Source of the DNA: Eledone cirrhosa
Taxonomy: Eukaryota
DNA: 64,000 nucleotides
Direction: 5' to 3'
NCBI GenBank assembly: GCA_964016885.1
Contig: OZ024745.1
Span: forward strand, 54,436,001 to 54,500,000
Shown: one piece after another, positions 19,112 through 42,739 of the stretch
How the letters are laid out: each line of letters opens with the position of its first letter
How positions within the stretch are numbered: the first letter of the stretch is position 1
Notes under the pieces: model-generated
What the model saw: the letters and a program-made list of their open reading frames with translations, nothing else
What the model was told of the DNA's origin: nothing
The model's database searches: none
Translations under genes and position numbers: made by a program

Positions 19112-19425
19112 GTGAGGTTTTTTTTACAAACTGAAAAATAACCGAGGTGTCCTACACGAGTGAAAGTATAAAGAAAAAGAGATGAAATCGAAAATGCAAC
19201 TGGAGTCTTATTTAAAAAAAAAATATATATATTTATTTGGTTCCTTTACCGGTTTCGCAGTTCTTCTGCTTTTCAAAAGTAGAGTTGAGATGGAGGGTCT
19301 GTGGTTTTTCTCACATCTGAGAAAAACCACAGACCCTCCATCTCGAACTCTACTTTTACCAAATAAATATATATATTTAAAAAAAAAATAAGACTCCAGT
19401 TGCATTTTCGATTTCATCTCTTTTT

Positions 19426-19746: not shown

Positions 19747-19944
19747 AACAAGTAAGACCCCGACGGCTGAGCTCAAGCCGTTTCGACGGCTAATTCTGTA
19801 CTAATTGAGTACAGAATTAGCCGTCGAAACGGCTTGAGCTCAGCCGTCGGGGTCTTACTTGTTCCTATTACCCACTCTACTACCCTAAGTATTCAGTACT
19901 TTGGTGCGTTATGGTCCACCTGGTTCCTTACCACATTTCCTTCG

Positions 19945-20227: not shown

Positions 20228-20390
20228 GTAATAATTGTTTCTACTTTAGGCACAAGGCCAACAATTTACAGTGCATTACTGGTACTTTATTTTATCGACC
20301 CCGTAAGGATGAAAGGCAAAGTCAACCTCCGCGGGATTTGAACTCAGATCGTAAAGGGACGTAACTATGCTGGAAAGCATGGCGTCCGAC
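20228..20390 (-). mobile_element. Family-1 SINE, cut at the 3' boundary of the R2-like element
   Basis: Homology to the other copies stops abruptly after GGCGTCCGAC at 20390. Confidence 0.85.
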
Positions 20391-21179
20391 AAGACCAAAA
20401 TTCAAAGCGAACGAGATAATGGTTTAATACACACATATATATATATACAGTAGCTGGCACTGAACTCGTGCTTTTTTCAAAGCACGAGACGCCTTTCCCT
20501 GTTTTTAGAGTGGGTGGTCCCACGGGCCAACGCCATCAAGCTCTCTATGGCATGAACGGTGTGCCCCTGTCAATCCGGTTGGTACCGACCGCAGTTCAAA
20601 CCGCTCACCGGCCGTGGCAGAATTATCATGTCACGCCGACCGCAATTCGATCCGCCATCTGTCAATCCAGTATTTAAAACCCTTAATAAACTAAAATAAG
20701 GTGGTCGTGCACCGCTCGACCCCCCCCCCCCAAAAAAAAAAAAGAGAACGCTCCACGAGACCCAAGTTTCTCACTCTCCTATTCAACATTCAATTAATAA
20801 GTTTTAATAACCAACAAATTAACAAAAATAAAAACACAGACACGTGACCCTGCAACGGGGGGTAAAGGGCGTGCTAACGTAAACCCACCACGAACGCCCG
20901 GACTAGCGGAGCCGGCGGAGTCGTCTCACTTCTCCTTCACTCGGATTTTCTATCCGACCGCTTACCGGGTTAGTTTAGTTAATCGGAATTAGGAAGAGTG
21001 GACCCGGGCTCTAACGCGCGCACAAAAAAAAAAAAAAAAATCTGAGGCAATCATCCCCGAACCCAGTATGGGCCCATACAAGGGGGGAGCAGCCGACAAT
21101 CAGTCAAAGCGAGAGGAACCAGAAGAGTCCAGAAAGCCCCGTCTCGCGAGCCCGCCAGCCAGTCGAGTCCAGCTGGAAC

Positions 21180-24100
21180 TCACTCCAGAATTTCAAGCGT
21201 TGCTAGCATCGCTCTACGACACAAGAGCCTCCTGAACGCATCGTCATCAATCCCAAGAGCAGAAAGAGTCTCCTCCGCCGCGACGGACCACGCTCCGCAG
21301 GCCCCGATGGGACAGCCATGAACCGAGACTCTCCCACCCGTTTCATTCTCCAGCAGAGCCGTTAAGGGAAGGTATTTTCGTACCTTCTCCGCCGCGGCGT
21401 CGATCAAAGCACTCCCCTGCTCAAATCTCACAGTGACATCAACGACCAACGTCGCACCCCTCTCGTCATCACCAGGTCCGGAATGAGCCTCGCATCGTTC
21501 ACCCGGTAGGACGGCTCCCAGCCAACCCTCCAGCCAAGGCGCGTGGATTCGTCCGCTATCAGTTGGCACAGCTGGTCATGCCAGGCCAGTCGCTTTCTCT
21601 TGAGAAGAGGGCACTGGCCACTGATATGGGCGATTGTCTCCGCGGCCGTTCCACAGCGTCGGCAGGTCTTGTCACCGCGACCGCCTCTCGCCAAGCATTC
21701 CCGGGTAGGAAACGTATTGGTTCGCAGTTTGAGACAACTCAAAAAAGGTCCCCTCAGAAACCACACCCGGGCGGAGCAACCAATCGTTGCCGATTCGGTC
21801 ACCCCGAAACGACCCCACACACGCCCTCTGGACGGGCTGGAAGGCCCAGGCCTCGGCGGTCTGCCGTCCAAGATCGGGCGCGTACGTGGACGCGCCCGGC
21901 GGGACCGGAGGCAGCCCATAACGTAACGCTATCTCGCTGTTCCGCGTAGCGAGGCCCGCCGATTCCGCCATGAGACGAACCGCGTCATAACGAGAGGCTA
22001 GCAAACGGAGATTATTACCCATCACGATGGATGGGATTAACTTCGCCAAGTGGCAAAGACCCAATCCACCGTCCCGCTTGCTACAGTGCAAGAAGGAAAC
22101 CGAGGTCGACACATGCAGATGCATAATCCTACGTGTTCCCGCGCGAATCGCCGCGTCTAGCTCCTCGAGTTTAATCCGGCTAGGCATCACCTGCACCAGA
22201 CTGTAAAACAATCTAGGCAGGTAATACTTTTGTAGCAGATGGAATTTCTGCCGGGGCTTCAGTGGAGCACAGCAAATCTTATCGACACACTGTGACACCC
22301 GCTCCACCGAAACTTTCAACTCGAGGTTCGACCACGGGCCGACACTAACACCTAAGTAAGAGCATTTCTCTGCAGGGTCGATTCTCAAGAGCTGAATCCC
22401 ATCAATCTCAGGGGCGGAGTCCGTGTTGACCAAGAAAGACTTCCCCCACGCTTTAATCGAGAAGAAGGCGCATTTGGAGACATTCACTGCTAGCTCCATC
22501 TCCCGGTAGAAAGACACACACCTGTCAACTAGGCGCTGCATCTCCACCGAGGAGCCGGACACCAGAGCATTGTCATCCGCGTACGCCAAACTCGACAAAC
22601 CCAACTCTCCAATCCATAAGCCACAGTCGTTGGACAAAGCGTCCAATAGCGGATCAGTGGCAATGTTGAAGAGAAGGGGCGAGAGGGCATCCCCTTGCCG
22701 TACTCCTCGCCTGATCGAGATGGCTCTGCTCGTTTCCGCTCCGACCGAGAATTTTGTGACACAGCCCTCGTACAGACCTCTCACGACTTCGACCATGTGT
22801 TCGTGAAATCCAAGTCTTCTCATGCCCGCAAACACGAGTGAGTGCGGGACAGTATCGAAGGCCTTGGCAAGGTCCAAGAAGGCCACGTTCAACTGCCGAA
22901 TCCTCGATCGAGCTAGCCCACCCCTAGTGCGAGCGATTAGTTGTCGCAGTAAGAATAAATTCTCACTGCAGCCGTCCGCATTAATGAACCCTCGTTGGGC
23001 CGGGTTCAGGGGTGTTACCTGAAGCATTCATTTAGAGAGAATCCTGGTGTATAGACGATACACGGCAGAGCATATCGTCAGGGGTCTCCAATTGGAAAGG
23101 TCGATCGGACCGTCCATCTTTTTGCGAATAAGGACTGACCTTCCTTGCTTCAAGATATCGGGAACTCTCCCGGCTAGCAGCAAACAGTTAAATAGATTCA
23201 CTAGAGTTGCAGGGTCGATTGCGCGTACTTGTTGGGGCGTGATTCCGTCGGGCCCCGGAGCCGAATGCAGATCCATACACTTACGCGCACCCACCACTTC
23301 GGACACGGTAAACGGCCGCAAAAGCGACTCATTGTTCACCACCTCCGTTGCGGGATACGCGCTAAGATCCACATCTGGTCCAGGGACGGAGAATCTGTCT
23401 TCGTAAGCAGACGCAATGTCCGCCATCGGGACAGGACACACCCACTGCATCTCTTCGCCTAAAATTACTGTTAGGAGCTTCTTCCTGTCTCGGTCATACA
23501 AAAACTGGTAGCGAGCGTAGAGGAGACTCTTTTCACTCTTTCTACCAGTTTTCTTATAGGGACTTTTAAATCTACTCTTTTTCCGTGTATTTCGCGCTCT
23601 ACCACGCCCTCTGTTCGAGCGCACCTTGTTCACCCATTCGTCGACAAACCCGGCGAACGCATCCCAGCTCTCATCCGTGATCTCATCACAGAATGTGACA
23701 AGACACTCGGCAAAAGCGGCGGACCATCGGAGCGCCCAGGCTCCACCGCCTCGCCAAACAAGTTCCTCCAATCGTTATCAAAGGCAACCGGGATGGACGC
23801 CCCACTCGGCTGGTTAGGCGGCCGTCTCTCTAACGACCCTGCAGAACGGGTAGGGGACTGTTCACAGTGTTTTCTTCTATTCCTTAGATCGCTCCTCTTC
23901 GAACTAATCTGTTTCACAGTCTTCCCGGGCAGGAAAGGAGCGATCCCAAGATTGACACGACGGCACCCCGCCTTAAGAAGCTCGTCCTCCTTTTCGAGAA
24001 GGACCGAAACCTCCTGCTCGGACCAACAACCACGACCAACCCGGGTGCGGGGCTGCCCAGCTCTCTCGCGAGAGGCTACAGCAGCACGAGAGGCACGCTT

Positions 24101-24823
24101 CTTTCCGATCTCCTCCGCGTGTTTCGCGATCCTGCGGCGATTGGCAACCACTGGATGACGATGTCTCTCGTGCTGTGATCTTCCTGCGACCGTACGGAAG
24201 GCACGGTCGCACTCTCCGCACCTGTGGATCAAGTCCGAGACGGCGGGAATATCGTCCCATCTCCTGCCCGTGCATCGGCCCACGTGCACCCGGAGCGAAT
24301 GCAGGTGACAACTCTCCCTACCGCATTTGCTGCACCTAAAAACTGCCTTTCGCTCATGACAGCGAAGCAAATGCTCCGCCCCACCAGACGGGCCCGAGAA
24401 ATGACGCGAACAGCACGAGCAAAACAAAATTACGCTCTTACAAGGAATCTCGAGACAGTCCTCCCCCGCGACCGTTGGCCCAACCTCACAGACAGATTCC
24501 ACGTGGTCGCGCGCGAGCCACGACGACAGTTGCTTGCCTCTCAAGACCAAAGCGTGGGTTGGGTACTCGAGAGTAAATTTATCGGGTGTATCCCTACGGA
24601 CTAGTATGGTCGGTATCTGAATCCTCCGGTAGGTCAAATCCAGTGAGCCGGCGCTCTTACGAGGAACATGGTCCGGCTCTTTGCCAGTCCTCGGAGACAG
24701 TTGCCAATCGCAGCGGGCCATTACAGAACGCTGCGACAGGCCGAAGAGACCTATCCCATTCCCTCCGGCCACTGGTTTTTCGGCCCCCAGCTGCCCTATG
24801 GAATTCAAAATATGTGTCATCAT
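21180..24823 (-). pseudogene. R2 polyprotein (zinc fingers CCHH-CCHC-CCHH, Myb, RT, CCHC knuckle, PD-(D/E)xK endonuclease)
   Basis: CSCC..H..H, CSKC..H..C, CGEC..H..H; WSEQEVSVL..PGKTVKQISSKR; WRPLTI, FLDLAKAFDTVPH, GVRQGDALSPLLFN, YADD; CRRC..ETIAHISGQC, IPDLVM, VVDVTVRFE, EKVRKY. Split by about 3 frameshifts and an in-frame TGA at 23028-23030. Confidence 0.92.
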
Positions 24824-24829
24824 AATTTG

Positions 24830-25001
24830 GGCACCAATTAGTTCGTCTTAATGTGGCCGACCAACCGAGAATGGTAAAACCTGCCGAGTCAACCCTGACC
24901 ACCGCAAAAAAAAAAAGGCGGGGCGGAGCTGCCTCTCTCGTACAGCTCAAAATCACGGACTTAAGCTCTCTTCCCACGCCAAGGGTGGTGCCGCAAGAGT
25001 C
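24830..25001 (-). ncRNA. Candidate HDV-like self-cleaving ribozyme in the R2 5' UTR
   Basis: Minus strand in order: GACTCTT (P1), GGCACCA (P2), CCC-TTGGCGT-GGG (P3/L3), AAGAG (P1'), long P4 region, AACTAAT (J4/2), TGGTGCC (P2'); the ORF ATG follows at 24823. Confidence 0.6.
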
Positions 25002-25149
25002 TGCATTTTTATATCTACCGAATTTCATTTGCAAAGAATTCGTTAAAATAAATCTATAGGATGAGTCATTTGCCCAATGTATCTTTGCAGTGGATTGAAT
25101 TCTGAACCATATGATTGATAATGTAATTTGCCCGACTTAAATGCCTCGC

Positions 25150-28508: not shown

Positions 28509-31500
28509 CCGGGATCGGGGGGAGGAGTTGCTGTGCTTTTTCGGAGAGGTTTGGATCTTGCCCCGACAGGAGCAGGGCGGCCTGATTTCTTCCGGCGTCT
28601 GGAGACCTTTCTTGGAACGTCCCGCTCTTTAGTGTTAGTGGGCGACTGGAACGGGATCTTAGATGCACGCTGGGACTGTGTGGGATTAGTGGATAGGGGA
28701 GGAGGGTGCAAGAGTCTCACCAACCTGCTCAGACGTTTTGAACTGTCTGACAGGTACCGATTGGATTTCCCGAATGTGCCAATGTGAACTTGGACAAATC
28801 GCATAGGGTCATCCAGATCATATCTAGATAGAGTATTTTGTAGGGAAATAGATAGGTCTAGCATAGGCTGTCCACAATTCAAGATGGTCAGCTACACGGA
28901 CCACAAATTCGTGATCTGTGTGCTTGACTTAGATAGGCTTCATAGATGAGGACCCGGCTACTGGAAGCTAAACGCGTCCTTACCAGCGCGCAAGGCCTAC
29001 AGAGACCGGATTAGCGAACTAGTTAAGCGGGCGTTGACGGGGGCCATCATCAACAACAAGTGGTGGTTTGCTCTGAAAAGAGCAATTAGAATAGAGTCCA
29101 TTAGATTTAGTAAGGCTTTAGCAATAGAGAAAAATAGAGCAGAGGGAGAACTAGTTAGAAAATTAGACGAGGCGCTTAGCAAAGGCATCTCGACCGACGT
29201 ACTTGCGGCGAAATTGGCCCTTGACCAATTCTTCAATGCAAAGCACGAAGGCTGCGTTGTCAGAGCTAGGGTACGTGCTCTCAGACACGAGGGGACGAAA
29301 GCCGTTCAATGGGCCCGAGTGGCGGAGGCGCGTCGTGGCAACAAAGCCACGATACGGTTTTTTGTGGACCACGACGGGCGCATTCTACTCGATCCGGGCA
29401 AATGTGTGAAGCTTTTCAGCGACACTTCGGACAGCTGTTCGGGGGCAGCGGCGGGCCGGATCGAGGGATGGACTTTAGTGTCTACTTCGACGGACTGGCG
29501 CGGCTCTCGGCCACCCAGGCGCAGTGTTGCGAAAAGCCGATAACAGCCGCTGAAGTACGGGAGGCAATGACTGGCTGCACAAGGGCTAAATCGCCTGGTT
29601 TGGATGGTCTGCCCTATGAACTTTACGTACATATGCCAGACATAATCGGAGGCCTCTTGGCGGACGTCTACTGCAACTGGCAACAGAACGGGAGAATTCA
29701 AAGCTCTGTGAGCTGAGGAGCTGTGGCGCTGCTGAGAAAGGATCCGAACAAGGGGGATAACATAGATAATTTCAGGCCCATAACTCTGCTAAACACAGAG
29801 TTTAAGATTTTGGCCAAGGTGCTAGCAAAGAGGTTGGCGCTTGTCGTTGGTGGTCTGCTGGGAGAGGGGGAGACATGCGCCATTCCTGACAGATCCATCC
29901 ACGACAACCCCCACCTCATGCGATACATCGTAGAGAGCGTAGCTAGGGAACCTGGCACGGGTGGGTCCTTGATCAATTTAGATCAGTCGAAAGCATTCGA
30001 TAGGGTCGACCATCATAACCTAGCGGCAGTCCTGAGGGCAGCTGGCTTTGGGCCCGTCTTCAGAGGCTGGATCGCTGCCATGCACAGCGACATCTGCTCT
30101 GTGGTGAGAGTGAACGGTCACCTTTCGGAACCGTTCAATATCATGCGCTCGGTCCGCCAAGGATGTCCCATCTCGTCCCTCTTGTACGTATTGACTCTCT
30201 CGCCATTACTGCACAAACTGCAGACGTTGAGGGGGGTCCCGCGCGAACTAGGATGCAGAAGATCCGTGTCAGCATATGCGGACGATGTCACCGTAGTGGT
30301 GTCGAACGCCAAACTCATCGAGGCGATTGGCACTACACTAAGAGAATACGAAGCGGTGACAGGAGCAATGATCAACCAGGAAAAGTCAATGGGCCTGCAG
30401 CTCGGCACCTGGAGAGGCAGGTCCATGCCGTCCAACAGCGTTGTCGGGCGCTGGACGGACGGACCGGTTAAATTGCTAGGGGTCTGGTTCGGTCCGGACC
30501 TCCAGACGGACAAAAACTGGGACGGTGACGAGCAGGGTGGCTTCTCTCACCCAGAAATGGGCGGAGAGGAAGCTATCCCGGAAAGGTCGAGCGGAGGTGG
30601 CTAACGCGTACATCGCGTCCGTCATCTACTACCGCCTGACCGTCGTACCTTGTCCTAAGCCCCGCCTGACTGCGCTGGAGCGTTTGCTCTTTCGATTTTT
30701 GAGGAAGGGACGCGCTCCGATGGTCAGGCGGTCCATCTGCTGTCAACACCCGCTACGTGGAGGGCTGGGCATGCCGTGGCTGATGATGAGCAGACACGCC
30801 CTCATGCTACGGCACCTCCACCTCTTCCTCGACGGTGATCAGTTGTGGTCGCCGTTTGCTAGACACGTCTTTCCCCAGCTCGTCTCTTTGACGGAGCTGC
30901 AGTCCTGGGTCAAGAGAAGAACGAGAGGGAGCGCTTGGAGACTGGAATGTCTTTAGGCGCTCACAGCCCTCGACCAATCGGGCAATGTGATCGGTGGAAA
31001 CTCCACCTTGGCGTTCTATAGAGGATTAGTGGAGGGGAAGAGCGACGACGTACTTGGAGAAACTCTAGGCGTCGACGAAAATCAACTAGCCAATCTCTTC
31101 GGAAGGACTTTCGGGCCGGGGCCTATGGACAACTTCCAGAAATCCCTGGCCTGGCAGTGCTACCGAGGAGCTTTGCCAGTTCGGGATAAACTCTACAGGC
31201 ATGGAGGTGACGTCAGCAGGGCGACGAAACCGTACTGCACGCACTCGTCCAGTGTCCGAGCATTGTTGACTTGTGGGTTTATGTCGAACACCTGCTGTCA
31301 CGTGTAGGACGGATCCAGCTATCAGCTGAGTCCATCGTGAGGATTGCCCCGCCCTCTTCCTTTAGCCGGGAAGGGCAGGCAGCTTTTATCTGTCTGGTGG
31401 CCATGGCGAAAGAGATAGTATGGTGGACACGTTTGAAAGGGCTGAAGACGAGCACTTACCTCTTCGGTGATGCCCTGATTAACTTTTTCAAATTTCATTT

Positions 31501-31681
31501 GAAAAGGAAAATCATGGTAGAGAGGGAAGTGCTCTCTTCCCAGCATTTTGTTGAAAGATGGGTGAGAGAAGCAAGTATGGCCCGTGTGAATGGGCCTAAT
31601 CTGAGTATCTGTCTGTAAATTAAAGGTGGAAAACTGGGAGAGGGCACTGCCCTGTAAACCCTTGTGGTTAATAAAGAAAGC
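28509..31681 (+). mobile_element. 5'-truncated, mutated copy of the Tx1/L1-type element
   Basis: Closely matches 39268-42740; internal deletion at a TGCC microhomology (~28560), stops and frameshifts, 3' UTR deletion; (ATT)n on both sides. Confidence 0.93.
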
Positions 31682-31696
31682 ATTATTATTATTATT

Positions 31697-33482
31697 GTTC
31701 TTTGAGTCTTAGTCATTGATGTTATTTAACTGGAAAGTTTGTTGAAATGAATATCAAGCCGCTACCTGCAGCCTCAGATATTCAGGACGAATCGGAGGGT
31801 TCTTGCTGTTCCTAGCAGGCATGCTTTTTGAAGTGTTCCAAAAAGCGGGGCTGGACTCATTTTCTTTAACCATCCTTGGAAACTCTTTGAGATAGTACCT
31901 AGTGCGCCTATGACAATCGGGACGACTCTGACTTCATGGCAGTTCCAAATCCTTTTTAACTCCCACTTTAAGTCCTGGTATCGGTTAATTTTCTCCCTCT
32001 CCTTTTCTTGCACTCTCGTGTCAAAGCGGCAGGCTACGTCTACAATCAGGCACGATCTTTTTTCCTTGTCCAAAACCACCAGGTCAGGCCTATTGTGTTC
32101 CAGTTTCTTGTCCGTCTGTATCCTAAAATCCTATAACACCTTCACCTGATCGTTTTCTATCGCTGACTCTGGCTTATGCTCATACCACTTCTCAGAATGT
32201 GGTAAATTTTTACTTTGCACAGGATAACCCTGCCTATCACATCATGTCTACAGCCTTTATAGTGAGTCTGGGCTAGGTGTTTACACTCGGATACAGTGTG
32301 AGCCATAGTCTCCTCTCTCCACAGATCCTACACAGTGGGCTAGCCTCCTCCTTGTAAATATGGTGTTTCAACCACTTCATTCTGACGGCCTGCTCTTGCG
32401 CAGTCATTAACATTCCTTCTGTAGCCTTTTTAAGGTCTCCTCTTTTTAATCAGTTCCATATCTGTAGATCTCTAAATTCAGTTTTCTCAACGAAGGTACG
32501 ATGAAGGGATTTTTCATGAAGGTTGCTCTTCCGCCTTGTTGTTATTTCCTCTTTGGACATCCCTCGGTCTATTGTCCTCTCCTTCAGTACAATTCTGAGC
32601 ATTGGCTCCCTACTGTCAGTCACGTATTTGTGAAGGTTGTTTTTCTCCATCTGAACACAGTCCTCTATGCTGATAAGACCTCTTCCACCTTCAGATCTCC
32701 TTAAGTAGAGTCTGTCGACATCACTCCTCTTGTGGAACATGTAGATAGTCAATAGCTTCCTAGTCTTCCTATCCCTTTCATTTTGTTCAGCAACATTCCA
32801 TCTCAGAATTCCCGCACTGTACCTAATAATAGACACAGCTAGGGAATTTACTGCACTTATGGCATTCCTACTGTTTGATGTGACTTTAATACGCTCCTTA
32901 CTCTCCGAATGTATTCAGATCTTATCAATTCCTTCATTTTTTTTTGTTCTTGATGTCATCAGCCTCCAGAACACCCAAATACTTGTATCCTTCTTCAGTG
33001 TCAATTTCCTTTATCATCTCACCTGTTGGTACCTGGATTCCGTTGCTTCTGCTCAATTTACCCCTCTTCATCACACGGACTCCACACTTACTAATGCCAA
33101 ATTGCATACATATATCATTGCTGAAAATTCGGACAGTGTCGACAAGCACATCCAACTCCTTCTCACTCTTCCCGAAGAGCTTAAGATCGTCCATGAAGAG
33201 GAAGTGGTCGATGGTAAGCTCTCCTTTTCTCAACTTGTATCCTGCTCTCACTTTTCGCAGTATAATGGTCAGGGGTATAAGGGCAAGGACAAACGACAGA
33301 AGGGACAAACTATCTCCCTGGAAGATACCTCTCTTGATCTTCACGTCTCCCAAGGATTCTCCACCCGATCTTAACTCTGTTTCCCAGGACTTCATACTTT
33401 TGCACAACAACTGTCTGATGTTATATGCCACCTTGAAGATATCTAGGCTTTTGGTTATCCAAGAGGTACCATGTCGAATGCC
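31697..33482 (-). mobile_element. R4/Dong-clade non-LTR element, 5'-truncated (RT, CCHC, RLE)
   Basis: GIFQGDSLS, LFMDDLKLF, YKYLG, GGRGL, RPDLVV..LIVDVAC..EKINRYQDL..IVIGALG; ends in (TAA)n on its own strand. Confidence 0.9.
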
Positions 33483-35437
33483 CTAGGGTGCGTGCTCTCA
33501 GACACGAGGGGACGAAAGCCGTTCAATGGGCCCGAGTGGCGGAGGCGCGTCGTGGCAACAAAGCCACGATCCGGTCTTTGATGGACCACGACGGGCGCAT
33601 GCTACTCGATCCCGGGAAAATGTGTGAAGCTTTTCAGCGACACTTCGCTCAGCTTTTCGGGAGCAGCGGTGGGCCGGGTCGACGGATGGACTCTAGTGTC
33701 TACCTTGACGGACTGCCTCGGCTCTTGGCCACCAGGTCAGGTCTATTGTGTTCCAGTTTCTTGTCCGTCTGTATCCTAAAATCCTATAACACCTTCACCT
33801 GATCGTTTTCTATCGCTGACTCTGGCTTATGCTCATACCACTTCTCAGAATGTGGTAAATTTTTACTTTGCACAGGATAACCCTGCCTATCACATCATGT
33901 CTACAGCCTTTATAGTGAGTCTGGGCTAGGTGTTTACACTCGGATACAGTGTGAGCCATAGTCTCCTCTCTCCACAGATCCTACACAGTGGGCTAGCCTC
34001 CTCCTTGTAAATATGGTGTTTCAACCACTTCATTCTGACGGCCTGCTCTTGCGCAGTCATTAACATTCCTTCTGTAGCCTTTTTAAGGTCTCCTCTTTTT
34101 AATCAGTTCCATATCTGTAGATCTCTAAATTCAGTTTTCTCAACGAAGGTACGATGAAGGGATTTTTCATGAAGGTTGCTCTTCCGCCTTGTTGTTATTT
34201 CCTCTTTGGACATCCCTCGGTCTATTGTCCTCTCCTTCAGTACAATTCTGAGCATTGGCTCCCTACTGTCAGTCACGTATTTGTGAAGGTTGTTTTTCTC
34301 CATCTGAACACAGTCCTCTATGCTGATAAGACCTCTTCCACCTTCAGATCTCCTTAAGTAGAGTCTGTCGACATCACTCCTCTTGTGGAACATGTAGATA
34401 GTCAATAGCTTCCTAGTCTTCCTATCCCTTTCATTTTGTTCAGCAACATTCCATCTCAGAATTCCCGCACTGTACCTAATAATAGACACAGCTAGGGAAT
34501 TTACTGCACTTATGGCATTCCTACTGTTTGATGTGACTTTAATACGCTCCTTACTCTCCGAATGTATTCAGATCTTATCAATTCCTTCATTTTTTTTTGT
34601 TCTTGATGTCATCAGCCTCCAGAACACCCAAATACTTGTATCCTTCTTCAGTGTCAATTTCCTTTATCATCTCACCTGTTGGTACCTGGATTCCGTTGCT
34701 TCTGCTCAATTTACCCCTCTTCATCACACGGACTCCACACTTACTAATGCCAAATTGCATACATATATCATTGCTGAAAATTCGGACAGTGTCGACAAGC
34801 ACATCCAACTCCTTCTCACTCTTCCCGAAGAGCTTAAGATCGTCCATGAAGAGGAAGTGGTCGATGGTAAGCTCTCCTTTTCTCAACTTGTATCCTGCTC
34901 TCACTTTTCGCAGTATAATGGTCAGGGGTATAAGGGCAAGGACAAACGACAGAAGGGACAAACTATCTCCCTGGAAGATACCTCTCTTGATCTTCACGTC
35001 TCCCAAGGATTCTCCACCCGATCTTAACTCTGTTTCCCAGGACTTCATACTTTTGCACAACAACTGTCTGATGTTATATGCCACCTTGAAGATATCTAGG
35101 CTTTTGGTTATCCAAGAGGTACCATGTCGAATGCCCTAGGGTGCGTGCTCTCAGACACGAGGGGACGAAAGCCGTTCAATGGGCCCGAGTGGCGGAGGCG
35201 CGTCGTGGCAACAAAGCCACGATCCGGTCTTTGATGGACCACGACGGGCGCATGCTACTCGATCCCGGGAAAATGTGTGAAGCTTTTCAGCGACACTTCG
35301 CTCAGCTTTTCGGGAGCAGCGGTGGGCCGGGTCGACGGATGGACTCTAGTGTCTACCTTGACGGACTGCCTCGGCTCTTGGCCACCAGGTCAGGTCTATT
35401 GTGTTCCAGTTTCTTGTCCGTCTGTATCCTAAAATCC
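32090..35437. repeat. 1653-bp tandem duplication of a chimeric R4/Dong plus Tx1 unit
   Basis: Identical ORFs offset by 1653 (32450/34103, 32934/34587, 33488/35141). Confidence 0.95.
33483..33733 (+). mobile_element. ~250-bp internal Tx1 ORF2 fragment between R4/Dong pieces (repeated at 35136-35386)
   Basis: Matches ~40121-40370 (RALRHEGTKAVQWARVAEARRG...). Confidence 0.9.
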
Positions 35438-35823
35438 CACAGCACCTTCACCTGATCGTTTTCTATCACCGACTCTGGCTTATGCTCATACCACTTCTCA
35501 GAATGTTGTACATTGTTTACTTTGCATAGGTGCCCGTGGATCTTCACGCTTTCCAAGGATTCTCCAGCTGATGTTAACTCTGTTTCCCAGGACTTCATAC
35601 TTTTGCCCAACAACTGTCTGATGCTATCTGCCACCTTGAAGATCTCTAGGCTTTTGGTGATCCAAGAATGAGGCACCATTTCAAATGCCTTTTTGTAGTC
35701 TATCCATCCCATGGTAAGACCAGTGTGTCTCCTCTTGCAATTCCTCATTACCATCTTTTCAATAAGTAACTGGTCCTTTGTACCACGGGACTTCTTTCGG
35801 CATCCATTCTGTTCGTCCGGTAA
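35382..35823 (-). mobile_element. Diverged R4/Dong fragment with an internal deletion
   Basis: [16 protein letters not shown] (RT) joined directly to [21 protein letters not shown] (RLE). Confidence 0.85.
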
Positions 35824-36849: not shown

Positions 36850-37083
36850 TATTATTATTATTATTATTATTATTGGCGACCTACGTAGGAAATCGTATTA
36901 TCGTGAGCTCCGCAAAGGTTTGTTATTTCCGTTTGTTTAAAAATTGCCATTTATGGAAAATTTTATTTTAAACTGTTTATAAGCACACATACATTGTTTT
37001 CCGAAAAGGACACCCAAAAAGATTGGGGCCTTGTGCCCAAAATTTTAACTTTTATTATTATCCAAAAATTTCTTTGAAAAAAA

Positions 37084-39044
37084 ATGGCTAATTCCCCTCT
37101 GCACGAAGCAGCTGAAAGCCTTCCTCACAAAATAACACCTCACACCGACACCACCATTGTAAATGTTACTACGTTTGCCAACACAAAAAAAAATATAAGC
37201 AGTAGCAATATTTTAAATTTGTCTCAGGCAGACATTCATTTCCCGCCATTACCAATGCCTGCAGGTGTTAAACCCTCCACCACCACCTCCACCGCGACAA
37301 CAGAAACAAAAGAAGAAAAAAATAAATTAACTCGTGACGTCGAAATGAAATCAAGCAAAATGGACTCTTCCCCACCAAAGACGACTGACGTCACCACCAC
37401 CACCACAACTGAAAATAAAATTAATATTAACGATAGCAACAACAACAACAATGACATTATAAAACCGACCCTCAGTTTCGCCATCGTAGCAAAACAATTC
37501 GAAGCGTTCACGGTAACTCAAGAAGATTTAGAAAATGCCAAACAAATGGTAAAGAAAGATGGGTACAGGGTCAGCCTCACCCCCCCACCTAATAAAATGG
37601 AGCATCGGCGCCTGTGCACCGTGTCGTATAGAACAATAAATGTAAAATCGCGCCGAGTGGAACGGGCATCCGAGTCCCAAATTCAAAAAGCTTTGGGACA
37701 TGTGTGGGCAAGAAAAACCCACATCAGACGTGGGCAAAAGTATGGAACCGTGGATGTGTTCTTTGAAACACCAGAGGAGGCTAGAGAACACTCCATGGCC
37801 CCATTAAAAAGTGACGACTTCACACTCGTCCCAAGCTATTGTGGCCAGAGACTCGTAAAGATCAGGGTGACCCACGTTCCACCGGCCATCGAAATTCCCT
37901 GGCTAATAGCGGCTGTCATCGCCGGCATCGAGGCCAACACGAAAATAATAACAATAGCAAAAGAAAAGCAGGAAAACTGGTCCGGATCTGGGATGGAGCT
38001 CCTGATCCAAGCGGACCAAAAAAGCATTGAGGAGATCCCAGAGGTAATAGACCTCACTGACGGCAGCCACCTCACGGTAATTGTCGAGGGCAGAAGACCT
38101 AGGTGTGTCGTTTGTGGTGAAGGAACCCACCTAAGGGCTTTCTGCCCTCAGGCTAAAAGGTTGAGGCCACCTCTCCTACCCACCCCAGTGACACAACCAT
38201 CAACACCACCAGTAGCAGAGATGCCAGCAACAACTGTAGCAACAACAACAGAAGCAACTATAACAGCAACAACCCCAGCAACAGTAGCAAAACCAACACC
38301 ACTACCACCACCAGCAAAATCAACACCACCACCACCCAACGCTTCAGAACTAGCACCAGCGCCTACACCATCCACCACACCACAACCAAAACTAACGGCT
38401 GTGGAGGATTTTCCACTCCCCGGCCTATCACAACTGGAGACAGATTGTGACGACGAGGAGTGGGAAACGATATCCGGAAAAAAAAAAGAAACCAAAAAAG
38501 AAAAAATTCTCTTCCTTCCTCCTCCAAAAACAAAATACAGAGGGAAACAAATAAACTAAGAAACAAAAAAGTTAGGACAGATATGCCACCATCCACACCA
38601 GCATCACCAACCCCATCAACCCAAACACCAACACCATCACCATCATTATCCCCAGCACCACCATCACCTACACCACAAAAGTCACCAAAATACGAAACAG
38701 AAACAAACCCACAACAAACGCAAACAAAACAAAACAACCAAAACGATACACACTACACAGCATTAAATTTGAACAACAAGCAATTATTACACTACATCCA
38801 ACACAACACCAGCATCACAGAAAAAGACTACACAACAACCCCAAAATTCACACCACCTCCACACATACAAATCACTCGCATCACACAGAAAACGTACATG
38901 ACACTAAAACAAAAATTCCCCAAAGACATCGGAGACTTCCGACAAGCACTCTCCAGGAGGATTTATAAGGACATCCTTCCTGAGGAGGCCACAAGCAGTG
39001 AAAAGGATGGAAAAGCCGTCCTTCCCCTACGAGAAGTAAGGTAA
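37084..39044 (+). CDS. ORF1 gag-like protein with a CCHC knuckle and Pro/Thr-rich region; frameshift in the A-run at ~38480-38505
   Basis: CVVCGEGTHLRAFC zinc knuckle; ORFs 37084..38559 and 38460..39044 overlap across a homopolymer. Confidence 0.8.
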
Positions 39045-39078
39045 GTGGTCTTTCCCATCTTTTCCACTCCTTTTCAAC

Positions 39079-42000
39079 ATGACCTCACTCAGAATAGGCA
39101 GCATAAATGCGCGTGGCTTGGGGTCGTCATGGAAGCAGGGCCACCTGCTCAACGACCTCAGGTCACTAAACATAGATGTAGTGGCCATCAGCGAGACCAG
39201 AATCTCCGAAGCACAGGCTTTCGCACCGATCTTCGGCGGCTACGATGTGTACGCATCTCCCAGCCGTCCGGGATCGGGGGGAGGAGTTGCTTTGCTTTTT
39301 CGGAGAGGTTTGGATCTTGCCATACGGGCCATCTTCCTGGACCCAGAAGGTAAGTTGGTGGTGCTGGACGTGACCAGCGGAGACGGGCAAGCTTTCAGGT
39401 TAGTGGCCGTCTATGCCCCGACAGGAGCAGGGCGGCCTGATTTCTTCCGGCGTCTGGAGACCTTTCTTGGAACGTCCCGCTCTTTAGAGTTAGTGGGCGA
39501 CTGGAACGGGATCTTAGATGCACGCTGGGATTGTGTGGGATTAGTGGATAGGGAAGGAGGGTGCAAGAGTCTCACCAACCTGCTCAGACGTTTTGAACTG
39601 TCTGACAGGTACCGAATGGATTTCCCGAATGTACCAATGTGGACTTGGACAAATCGCATAGGGTCATCCAGATCATATCTAGATAGAGTATTTTGTAGGG
39701 AAATAGATAGGTCTAGCATAGGCTGTCCACAATTCAAGATAGTCAGCTACACGGACCACAAATTCGTGATCTGTGTGCTTGACTTAGATAGGCTTCATAG
39801 AGGAGGACCCGGCTACTGGAAGCTAAACGCGTCCTTACCAGCGCGCAAGGCCTACAGAGACCGGATTAGCGAACTAGTTAAGCGGGCGTTGACGGGGGCC
39901 ATCGTCAACAACAAGTGGTGGTTTGCTCTGAAAAGAGCAATTAGAATAGAGTCCATTAGGTTTAGTAAGACTTTAGCAATAGAGAAAAATAGAGCAGAGG
40001 GAGAATTAGTTAGAAAATTAGATGAGGCGCTTAGCAAAGGCATCGCGACCGACGTACTTGCGGCGAAATTGGCCCTTGACCAATTCTTTAATGCAAAGCA
40101 CGAAGGCTGCGTTGTCAGAGCTAGGGTGCGTGCTCTCAGACACGAGGGGACGAAAGCCGTTCAATGGGCCCGAGTGGCGGAGGCGCGTCGTGGCAACAAA
40201 GCCACGATCCGGTCTTTGGTGGACCACGACGGGCGCATGCTACTCGATCCCGGGCAAATGTGTGAAGCTTTTCAGCGACACTTCGCTCAACTGTTCGGGG
40301 GCAGTGGCGGGCCAGATCGAGGGATGGACTTTAGTGTCTACCTCGACGGACTGCCGCGGCTTTCGGCCACTGAGGCGGAGTGTTGCGAAAAGCCGATAAC
40401 AACCGCTGAAGTACGGGATGCAATGACTAGTTGCACAAGGGGTAAATCGCCTGGTTTGGATGGTCTGCCCTATGAACTTTACGTACAAATGCCAAACTTG
40501 TTCGGAGGCCTCTTGGCGGACGTCTACTGCAACTGGCAACAGAACGGGAGAATTCCCAGCTCTGTGAGCCGAGGAGCGGTGGCGCTGCTGAGAAAGGATC
40601 CCAACAAGGGGGATAACATAGATAATTTTAGGCCCATAACTCTGCTAAACACAGAGTTCAAGATTTTGGCCAATGTGCTAGCAAAGAGGTTGGCGCTTGT
40701 CGTTGGTGGTCTGGTGGAGAGGCACAGACATGCGCCATTCCCGGCAGATCCATCCACGACAACCTCCACCTCATGCGATACATCGTAGAGAGGGTAGCTA
40801 GGGAACCTGGCACGGGTGGGTCTTTGATCAATTTAGATCAGTCGAAAGCCTTCGATAGGGTCGACCATCGTTACCTAACGTCAGTCCTGAGGGCGGCTGG
40901 CTTTGGGCCCGTCTTCAGAGGCTGGATCGCTGCCATGCACAGCGACATCTGCTCTGTAGTGAGAGTGAACGGTCACCTTTCGGAACCGTTCAACATCATG
41001 CGCTCGGTCCGCCAAGGATGTCCCCTCTCGTCCCTATTGTACGTATTGACTCTCGAGCCATTACTGCACAAACTGGAGACGTTGAGGGGGGTCCCGCGCG
41101 AACTAGGATGCGAAAGATCCGTGTCAGCATATGCCGACGATGTCACCGTAGTGGTGTCGAACGCCAAACACATCGAGGCGATCGGCACTACACTAAGAGA
41201 ATACGAAGCGGTGACAGGAGCAATGATCAACCAGGAAAAGTCAGTGGGCCTGCAGCTCGGCACCTGGAGAGGCAGGTCCATGCCGTCCAACAGCGTCGTC
41301 GGGCGCTGGACGGACGGACCGGTTAAATTGCTAGGGGTCTGGTTCGGTCCAGACCTCCAGACGGACAAAAACTGGGACGAGGTGACGAGCAAGGTGGCCT
41401 CTCTCACCCAGAAATGGGCCGAGAGGAAGCTATCCCTGAAAGGTCGAGCGGAGGTGGCGAATGCGTACATCGCATCCGTCATCTACTACCGTCTGACCGT
41501 CGTACCTTGTCCTAAGCCCCGCCTGACTGCGCTGGAGCGTTTGCTCTTTCGCTTCTTGTGGAAGGGACGTGCTCCGATGGTCAGGCGGTCCATCTGCTGT
41601 CAACACCCGCTACGTGGAGGGCTGGGCATTCCGTGGCTGATGATGCGCAGACACGCGCTCAGGCTACGACATATCCACTTCTTCCTCGACGGTGATCAGG
41701 TGTGGTCGCCGTTTGCAAGACACCTTTTTCCCCAGCTCGTCTCCTTGACTGAGCTGCAGTCCTGGGTCAAGCGAAGACCGAGAGGGAGCGCTTGGAGACT
41801 GGAATGTCTTCAGGCGCTCACAGCCCTCGACCAATCGGGCAATGTGATCGGTGGAAACTCCACCTTGGCGTTCTATAGGGGATTAGTGGAGGGGAAGAGC
41901 GACGACGTACTTGGAGAAACTCTAGGCGTCGACGAAAATCAACTAGCCAATCTCTTCGGAAGGACTTTCGGGCCGGGGCCTATGGACAACTTCCAGAAAT

Positions 42001-42497
42001 CCCTGGCCTGGCAGTGCTACCGAGGAGCTTTGCCAGTTCGGGATAAACTCTACAGGCATGGAGGTGCCGTCAGCCGGGCATGTCCGAGATGCGCGCAGGG
42101 CGACGAAACCGTCCTGCACGCACTCGTCCAGTGTCCGAGCATTGCTGACTTGTGGGTTTATGTCGAACACCTGCTGTCACGTGTAGGACGGATCCAGCTA
42201 TCAGCTGAGTCCATCGTGAGGATTGCCCCGCCTCCTTCCTTTAGCCTGGAAGGGCAGACAGTTTTTATCTGTCTGGTGGCCATGGCAAAAGAGATAGTAT
42301 GGTGGACACGTTTGAAAGGGCTGAAGACGAGCACTTACCTCTTCGGTGATGCCCTGATTAACCTTTTCAAATTTCATTTGAAAAGGAAAATCAGGGTAGA
42401 GAGGGAAGTGCTCTCTTCCCAGCATTTTGTTGAAAGATGGGTGAGAGAAGCAAGTATGGCCCGAATGAATGGGCCTTCTCTGAGTATGTGTCTGTAA
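39079..42497 (+). CDS. ORF2 (APE endonuclease, RT, C-terminal CCHC) with one frameshift near 40716
   Basis: SINARGL, VAISET, VYAP, GDWN, SYLDR, YTDH; KSPGLDG, FRPITLLN, DQSKAFDRV, VRQGCPLS, YADD; CPRC..HALVQC. Confidence 0.93.
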
Positions 42498-42739
42498 ATT
42501 AAAGGTGGAAAACTGGGAGAGGGCACTTGCCCTGGTGGTCAGGGCCACTGTGGTCTTTTAATGGGCTTTCTCCACAAATGTCCCTTGGAAGTCTCCCCCC
42601 TATTGGGGAATATTTCTTTGTTATTTTATTTCAACCTCTGTTTTTTTACACGCAGAAATGCCCATTTGTACCGTCCTGTATTGTCCTGTACTGTCCTTAA
42701 TGTCTACTTTATGTGAACCCTTGTGGTTAATAAAGAAAA

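Follow-up and report, generated by a model that had tools for sequence, protein, structure and literature searches.

A frame-broken R2 lineage-A retrotransposon outside the ribosomal DNA of the curled octopus Eledone cirrhosa, probably an off-target insertion of a 28S-directed family

The stretch of DNA analysed here, in the following referred to as the window, comprises 64,000 nucleotides (nt) of the Eledone cirrhosa genome assembly (GCA_964016885.1, contig OZ024745.1, positions 54,436,001 to 54,500,000) and carries, on its minus strand, a 4,550-bp non-LTR retrotransposon of R2 lineage A (20450-24999), for which both ends were set by comparison with its relatives from the same genome. The family of this element resides at the canonical site within the 28S gene of the ribosomal DNA (rDNA); the window copy possesses the exact family ends within flanks that are not rDNA and retains a remnant of 28S at its 5' end. 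The explanation favoured, with a probability of about 0.8, is that the window copy is a dead off-target insertion, complete from end to end, of an R2 lineage-A (R2A) family that is 28S-specific and slightly leaky. It is not a one-off off-target insertion, and a retargeting of the family is considered unlikely.

Identity, ends and coding frame of the element

A preliminary description, derived from the letters of the window alone, had named the domain order of the element and had placed it into R2 clade A. This order is visible in the minus-strand frames, where three N-terminal zinc fingers of the types CCHH, CCHC and CCHH (24155-24421) are followed by a Myb-like DNA-binding domain (23888-24037), the reverse transcriptase (RT) core with its QGD and YADD motifs (22344-23009), a CCHC zinc knuckle (21611-21664) and a C-terminal restriction-like endonuclease (RLE) region with the motifs HDQL, IPDLV, VDVTV and KVRKY (21180-21590), the latter being split by a frameshift near 21458. 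Fingers, Myb-like domain and RLE region were assigned by motif reading, and no Pfam match was obtained for either the Myb-like domain or the RLE region; the RT core is matched by Pfam RVT_1 (E-value 4e-25) and the knuckle motif by zf-RVT with an E-value of 2e-4, which is under the curated cut-off. A search of the PDB returned R2 proteins as top matches (E-values 4e-61 to 7e-59), with Bombyx-sized R2 entries (1e-44) and LINE-1 (4e-9) as weaker ones. In an RT tree (FastTree) built from 87 RT pieces, i.e., two from the genome itself, 79 taken from the 80 top matches and six outgroups of the apurinic/apyrimidinic endonuclease (APE) type, the window copy locates within the three-finger clade together with Beryx R2 (support 0.976), which groups the RT with lineage-A R2; none of the matches bore the name R8, R9, NeSL or Utopia, and the tree therefore does not place these by name. 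Membership in lineage A is thus supported by three fingers preceding a motif-defined Myb and by RT, knuckle and RLE following in order, even though the frame of the window copy is broken at four positions. Utopia and NeSL elements have U2 or the spliced leader as their target, the latter being that of NeSL. Membership in NeSL or Utopia does not fit an element with a Myb-like motif whose family resides at 28S and whose window is free of Rfam matches, as Utopia is described without a Myb domain in PMC13188248.

The 3' untranslated region (20450-21179) ends with the letters GCCAGCTAC and is devoid of poly(A), as had been described before. This is normal for the family, because its 28S-resident copies do not have poly(A) either. 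The element edge had been placed at 20391, yet relatives cease to match at 20450, which is the real 3' end. The earlier term full-length holds for the ends, both of which are present, but not for the open reading frame (ORF), which is interrupted by frameshifts near 23729, 21741 and 21458 and by an in-frame stop at 23028-23030 (minus strand). Upon comparison with 11 loci, none of these four breaks was found in any relative that covers the respective position. Being private to the window copy, they point to decay of the inserted element or, for some of them, to slips of the assembly; read contigs agree with the window form at 21741, not at 21458.

The family and its site in 28S

A search of the genome with the element gave at least 79 matches. 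Scoring covered only 40 of 1,129 candidates, among which matches to a short interspersed nuclear element (SINE) are probably frequent, so that the counts are lower bounds. A separate search with the last 196 nt returned 27 places, all of which were scored. Here, 17 of the 27 3' ends adjoin TAGCC of the canonical 28S target, seven adjoin the head of another R2 and three lie in non-rDNA, the latter being the window copy, a copy at C18:32.77 Mb and a short element within (AC)n at C7:22.1 Mb. The two last-mentioned copies resemble the window copy in having both ends in non-rDNA, which does not fit the one-off ectopic copy considered in the preliminary description. At 28S or in R2 tandems 24 of the 27 3' ends were found. 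Of the 17 elements adjoining 28S, 14 are short or partial and three are long. Family junctions were found at -4 (5') and +1 (3') of the 28S target on many contigs, and the 28S flanks were identified as genuine rDNA units, often kilobases long, by Rfam LSU, SSU and 5.8S matches on six fetched stretches. The exact downstream 28S target occurs 23 times within the assembly, whereby one place fits the pattern of an empty site and one more represents continuous rDNA. With nearly none of these targets empty, the main rDNA array is probably under-assembled and rDNA-resident copies would be under-counted. Nearly all assembled 28S target sites are occupied, and rDNA units or fragments are scattered over the large contigs C1, C2, C3, C4, C6, C7, C9, C10, C12, C14 and C25.

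One 28S-embedded copy (L008) has a 995-aa frame and shares 87% identity with the window copy; about 630 bp are missing from it, and with them most of the knuckle and the RLE. Over the 400 residues available it matches R2-1_ECi, the R2 element reported for the curled octopus by Hassan et al. 2026 (Table S2, row 186; PMC13188248), and it shares with the listed entry the ORF start, the 995-aa length and the 28S flanks. By sequence, the window copy is thus a member of this already catalogued octopus R2 family. It differs from R2-1_ECi, which is 28S-embedded and about 630 bp short, in being a younger variant that is complete end to end, broken and located outside rDNA.

A head-to-tail R2 array of about 33 kb at C18:15.04-15.08 Mb (L130-L133) comprises copies of the window family and of the second R2A family described below as well as a short element, and it follows 400 bp of 28S. 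Another tandem array, at C3:332.08-332.10 Mb (L141-L142), consists of older copies of 73-77% identity and has no rDNA within 30 kb. At C11:13.12 Mb (L003, L164:3673-7785) a 5'-truncated copy of 95% identity is followed by 50 nt of 28S and then by unrelated DNA, which may either result from an insertion with read-through or be left over from rDNA.

The insertion site

In agreement with the preliminary description the copy resides outside rDNA, as within the 64-kb window Rfam gave no rRNA match and the 18S-28S unit of the same genome did not match either. A target-site duplication (TSD), reported before as absent, was not found within 40 nt per side either; the longest common word is ATATA and no suffix-prefix repeat exists. 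The assumption that the element directly adjoins a cut SINE has to be corrected. The true 3' flank is a spacer of 59 nt (20391-20449) with a (CA)n(TA)n tract at its end, and beyond it resides a truncated, very high-copy SINE-like repeat on the plus strand (20229-20390), named a SINE in the preliminary description and recognized here by its very high depth and by loose ends at 20390. As this repeat ends at 20390, 59 nt from the element, it has no contact with it and was not cut by R2. The decayed short repeat described for the 5' side was located at 25002-25120 (plus strand). A paralogue at C3:95.37 Mb shows the (CA)n(TA)n tract directly preceding the same repeat body as found in the 5' flank, from which it follows that both window flanks likely stem from one decayed repeat that existed prior to insertion.

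The 5' junction is crossed by a contig of about 2 kb in each of three sequencing runs, with 34-37 letters lying within the element and 0-2 differences. These runs, which contain half of the words or close to it, come from one sample and may be the assembly's own source. The restriction-site-associated DNA sequencing runs X5-X7 gave no usable cover of the junctions, and the four loose reads at 20447 fall into the microsatellite. No RNA run holding words of the element was found among the listed runs, and contig depths were not taken as copy numbers. One contig links 20447 with 25016 through 15 letters of different sequence; its reading as an empty allele was rejected, as it is explained by the paralogue at C3:95.37 Mb, where the same 15 letters occur with both flank types (one of 15 pattern-search matches).

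The off-target copy at C18:32.77 Mb (L066/L032) splits another repeat, of which about 6-8 bp are missing as compared with one other copy of that repeat. This repeat family, which comes after a (TA)n tract, was hit independently by another off-target insertion (L077, C25:6.66 Mb), at a distance of about 35 bp. Several off-target sites coincide with (TA)n or (CA)n tracts or lie close to them, which may be due to chance. Within the window, inverted repeats that are long and near-perfect were noticed by eye at 19208-19360 and 19760-19860, located between (TA)n tracts.

The 28S remnant and the predicted 5' ribozyme

The downstream 28S target had been described as absent, which is correct for the surroundings of the element, but a short remnant, GACTCTT, exists at 24995-25001 (minus strand), where 28S-resident copies carry GACTCTCTT, corresponding to -13 to -5 of the target. 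The GA of this remnant may be due to chance; CTCTT or more was found at four off-target 5' ends (the window copy, L042, L070 and L077). The remnant forms the start of a predicted ribozyme of the hepatitis delta virus (HDV) type (24829-25001, minus strand), in which the 5' strand of P1 comes from 28S and pairs with AAGAGAGCU, the other parts being an invariant P3 (CCC/GGG), a 7-nt L3, P2 (GGCACC/GGUGCC) and a long P4. Among 15 aligned 5' ends, P2 is paired to 97.8% with two-sided changes in three of six pairs, and its covariation score exceeds those of 500 of 500 shuffles and of all slid controls, a result that is inflated by related rows. For P1 the pairing of the strand after P3 with GACUCUCUU of 28S was counted copy by copy, giving eight of nine pairs in eight of the ten rDNA-flanked copies, seven of nine in the other two and six of nine pairable in the window copy. 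Hence it is predicted that the 5' ribozyme would free the RNA from the 28S co-transcript, with a predicted cut at -13 in 28S. Cleavage at -13 is among the sites reported for R2 ribozymes, whose P1 makes use of 28S letters (PMC3774820). A cut at -28 was rejected, as no fitting P1' follows the L3 candidate, and the variable 28S duplications present at some junctions do not fix the cut site. With GACTCTT present at the 5' end, where the predicted ribozyme would cut a 28S co-transcript, the parent of the window copy likely resided in rDNA.

A leaky or a retargeted family

Several observations weigh against an off-target insertion from a 28S-specific family. When 31 coding-family loci were classed according to whether the 10-50 kb fetched for each contain rDNA, leaving aside short 5' fragments and elements resembling short internally deleted elements (SIDEs), ten were found with 28S at the junction, one of them with 50 nt only, and 21 without rDNA nearby. 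A 3' end common to the old relics was sought and most of these were found without one, for which reason their route out of rDNA is not traceable. Furthermore, the window flanks have no likeness to the 28S target, no bridging contig was seen at the 3' junction in the read contigs, and neither the read contigs nor the pattern search yielded an empty allele. Plain minimum-free-energy folding of the 5' region gave a z of -0.49 without forming P1, and the ribozyme is a prediction only. Finally, the closest copy (C18:32.77 Mb) is also off-target and carries the same exchange of Trp to Gly in finger 3.

The count by locus changes its meaning when age is considered, as rDNA was missing nearby in two of nine young loci (those with a piece of 87% or higher identity to the window copy) as opposed to 19 of 22 older ones (Fisher p 0.0013, the threshold having been chosen after seeing the data and the loci not being independent). 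Off-target relics are mostly old and span 66-99% identity, and the young copies have a 28S junction in seven of nine cases (one with 50 nt only). The off-target flanks differ from each other, so no common new site exists, and in two DNA trees, which are ladders, off-target and rDNA copies are interleaved with no separate, propagating off-target clade. Finger 1 and Myb, which were reported to set the target in lineage A (PMC11204384), match those of rDNA-resident copies in the window copy. The earlier suggestion that the lineage has lost or changed its target is not supported, given the unchanged finger 1 and Myb, the lack of an off-target clade, the 3' ends at 28S or R2 tandems and the close relative published as 28S-embedded; the second suggestion, a rare ectopic insertion of an rDNA element, is supported, with rare to be qualified, as relics are many. 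For avian R2A proteins in cells an off-target fraction of about 0.1-1% was reported (PMC11371274).

The proposed course of events assumes that the parent was co-transcribed with 28S and that, about 13 nt upstream of the target, its 5' HDV-like ribozyme released it. The R2 protein would then have primed cDNA synthesis at the boundary between (TA)n and repeat, with little or no change of the target. As the new copy would have no rRNA promoter and half of P1 was lost, it would have been dead on arrival, with decay following later. Slips of this kind are likely recurrent, though infrequent, and as the relics reside outside the turnover of rDNA, they would accumulate.

A more far-reaching reading takes the youngest branch, i.e., the window copy and that at C18:32.77 Mb with their exchange in the finger-3 core, as a lineage-A element whose 28S specificity is just becoming looser. 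The dated series of about 20 off-target relics in the genome, together with mobile SIDEs, would then be a record of R2A targeting strictness over time. This reading is regarded as rather doubtful. Its narrower form, considered improbable, is a young sublineage of these two copies with relaxed targeting that is now entering common AT-rich repeats. Within the RT region the two are 98.7% alike; in both, the exact 3' end lies in a non-rDNA repeat and is without the 2 nt seen before TAGCC, and both possess Gly (24380-24382 in the window copy) where most copies have Trp in finger 3; non-specific R2 families do exist (PMC5035012). However, such a sublineage would consist of two copies only, in a node shared with an rDNA-resident copy (C4:236.7 Mb, 98.0% identical to the window copy), the branching order of which is unresolved on the trees. 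A copy at C18:15.066 Mb, inside the 28S tandem array, has the finger-3 Gly as well, Trp is found in two older off-target copies, and avian R2A with finger 3 deleted keeps its rDNA fidelity (PMC11204384), all of which weakens the finger-3 change as cause of off-targeting. Moreover, the predicted 5' ribozyme still needs 28S letters, so that an off-target copy would hardly be able to serve as parent.

It is quite improbable that the window copy left the rDNA as DNA, be it that an R2-bearing unit recombined or that it served in template-switch repair. This idea draws on rDNA units or fragments on at least ten contigs, many of them rearranged, on the copy at C11:13.12 Mb, which keeps just 50 nt of downstream 28S, and on the lack of a TSD at the window copy. 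Yet the breakpoints at the window, C18:32.77 Mb and C7:22.1 Mb are within a few bases of the element ends, a repetition for which DNA capture gives no reason; exact element ends at three off-target sites would therefore favour reverse transcription. An assembly error is very improbable, for despite the single sample behind the main runs, possibly the assembly's own source, and the missing bridge at the 3' junction, contigs of about 2 kb cross the 5' junction in three runs and both flanks fit one repeat.

Relation to known systems

An off-target insertion of a 28S-specific family has a precedent in the non-28S R2 copies of five Drosophila species, which diverge by 1-2% from rDNA copies and were judged to be dead ends (Stage and Eickbush 2009, PMC2718515). 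Like these, the octopus copy is located outside rDNA; the Drosophila copies are often incomplete, whereas in the octopus one copy is complete and the relics span 66-99% identity. R2NS-1_SMed and R2NS-1_CSi, non-specific families of clades D and C with young non-specific copies (Kojima et al. 2016, PMC5035012), likewise reside at non-rDNA sites, but the octopus family belongs to clade A and is mostly 28S-bound. A closer parallel is the oyster R2-1_CGi, first named as non-specific and renamed after a 28S-adjacent copy was seen (PMC5035012). According to the same source, R8 (18S, within clade A) and R9 (another 28S site) derive from R2, and jawed-vertebrate R2s, with the exception of two R2C families, were placed in R2A3; R8 and R9 each moved to one new rDNA site, unlike the octopus off-target copies, which have no new site in common. 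Among the top-ranked literature matches, subscription journals not being covered, neither off-target R2 copies nor SIDEs were the subject of any cephalopod paper.

The result is a modest one, i.e., a dead stray of a catalogued family and a known kind of slip. A 2026 review cautions that present-day locations can mislead on R2 specificity, since the loss of copies differs inside and outside rDNA (PMC13580325). The octopus family illustrates this caution: the count by locus (21 of 31) reads as non-specific, the young copies and intact 3' ends as 28S-specific. As gene insertion into rDNA makes use of lineage-A R2 proteins, natural off-target junctions are of some value as examples.

SIDE-like elements and other observations

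Fifteen elements of 1.17-1.39 kb (L034, L036, L042, L045 and L047-L057, on contigs C2, C3, C4, C6, C7, C12 and C25) combine the 5' ribozyme region and the 3' end of the family without a long coding part, and some of them contain an internal piece of 28S (-89 to -18). Their 3' ends are at the 28S site in 13 cases, at another R2 head in one and in (AC)n in one. By their composition they look like R2 SIDEs as defined in Drosophila (Eickbush and Eickbush 2012, PMC3414825), with which they share the R2 5' ribozyme region and a 3' end at 28S; they are side members of the family, distinct from the window copy. In a mollusc such elements may be more reportable than the window copy itself.

A second three-finger R2A family uses the same 28S site; it has an open 1,214-aa frame with 41-45% protein identity to the window element (L124:1591-6560 at C2:166.89 Mb; also L135-L136, L128-L129 and L130-L133). 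At C6:50.98 Mb (L125:6402-10000) a tandem repeat with a unit of about 70 bp extends over at least 3.6 kb and matches +30 to +116 of 28S, its unit thus being derived from just downstream of the R2 site. Elsewhere in the window an APE-endonuclease non-LTR element, presumably L1/Tx1-like by its motifs, was found at 37078-42534 with a 493-aa ORF1-like frame and ORF2 in two frames, and a partial copy, 95% identical to it, at 28556-31654. Finally, a tandem duplication of 1.65 kb with 99.4% identity occupies 32076-35530.

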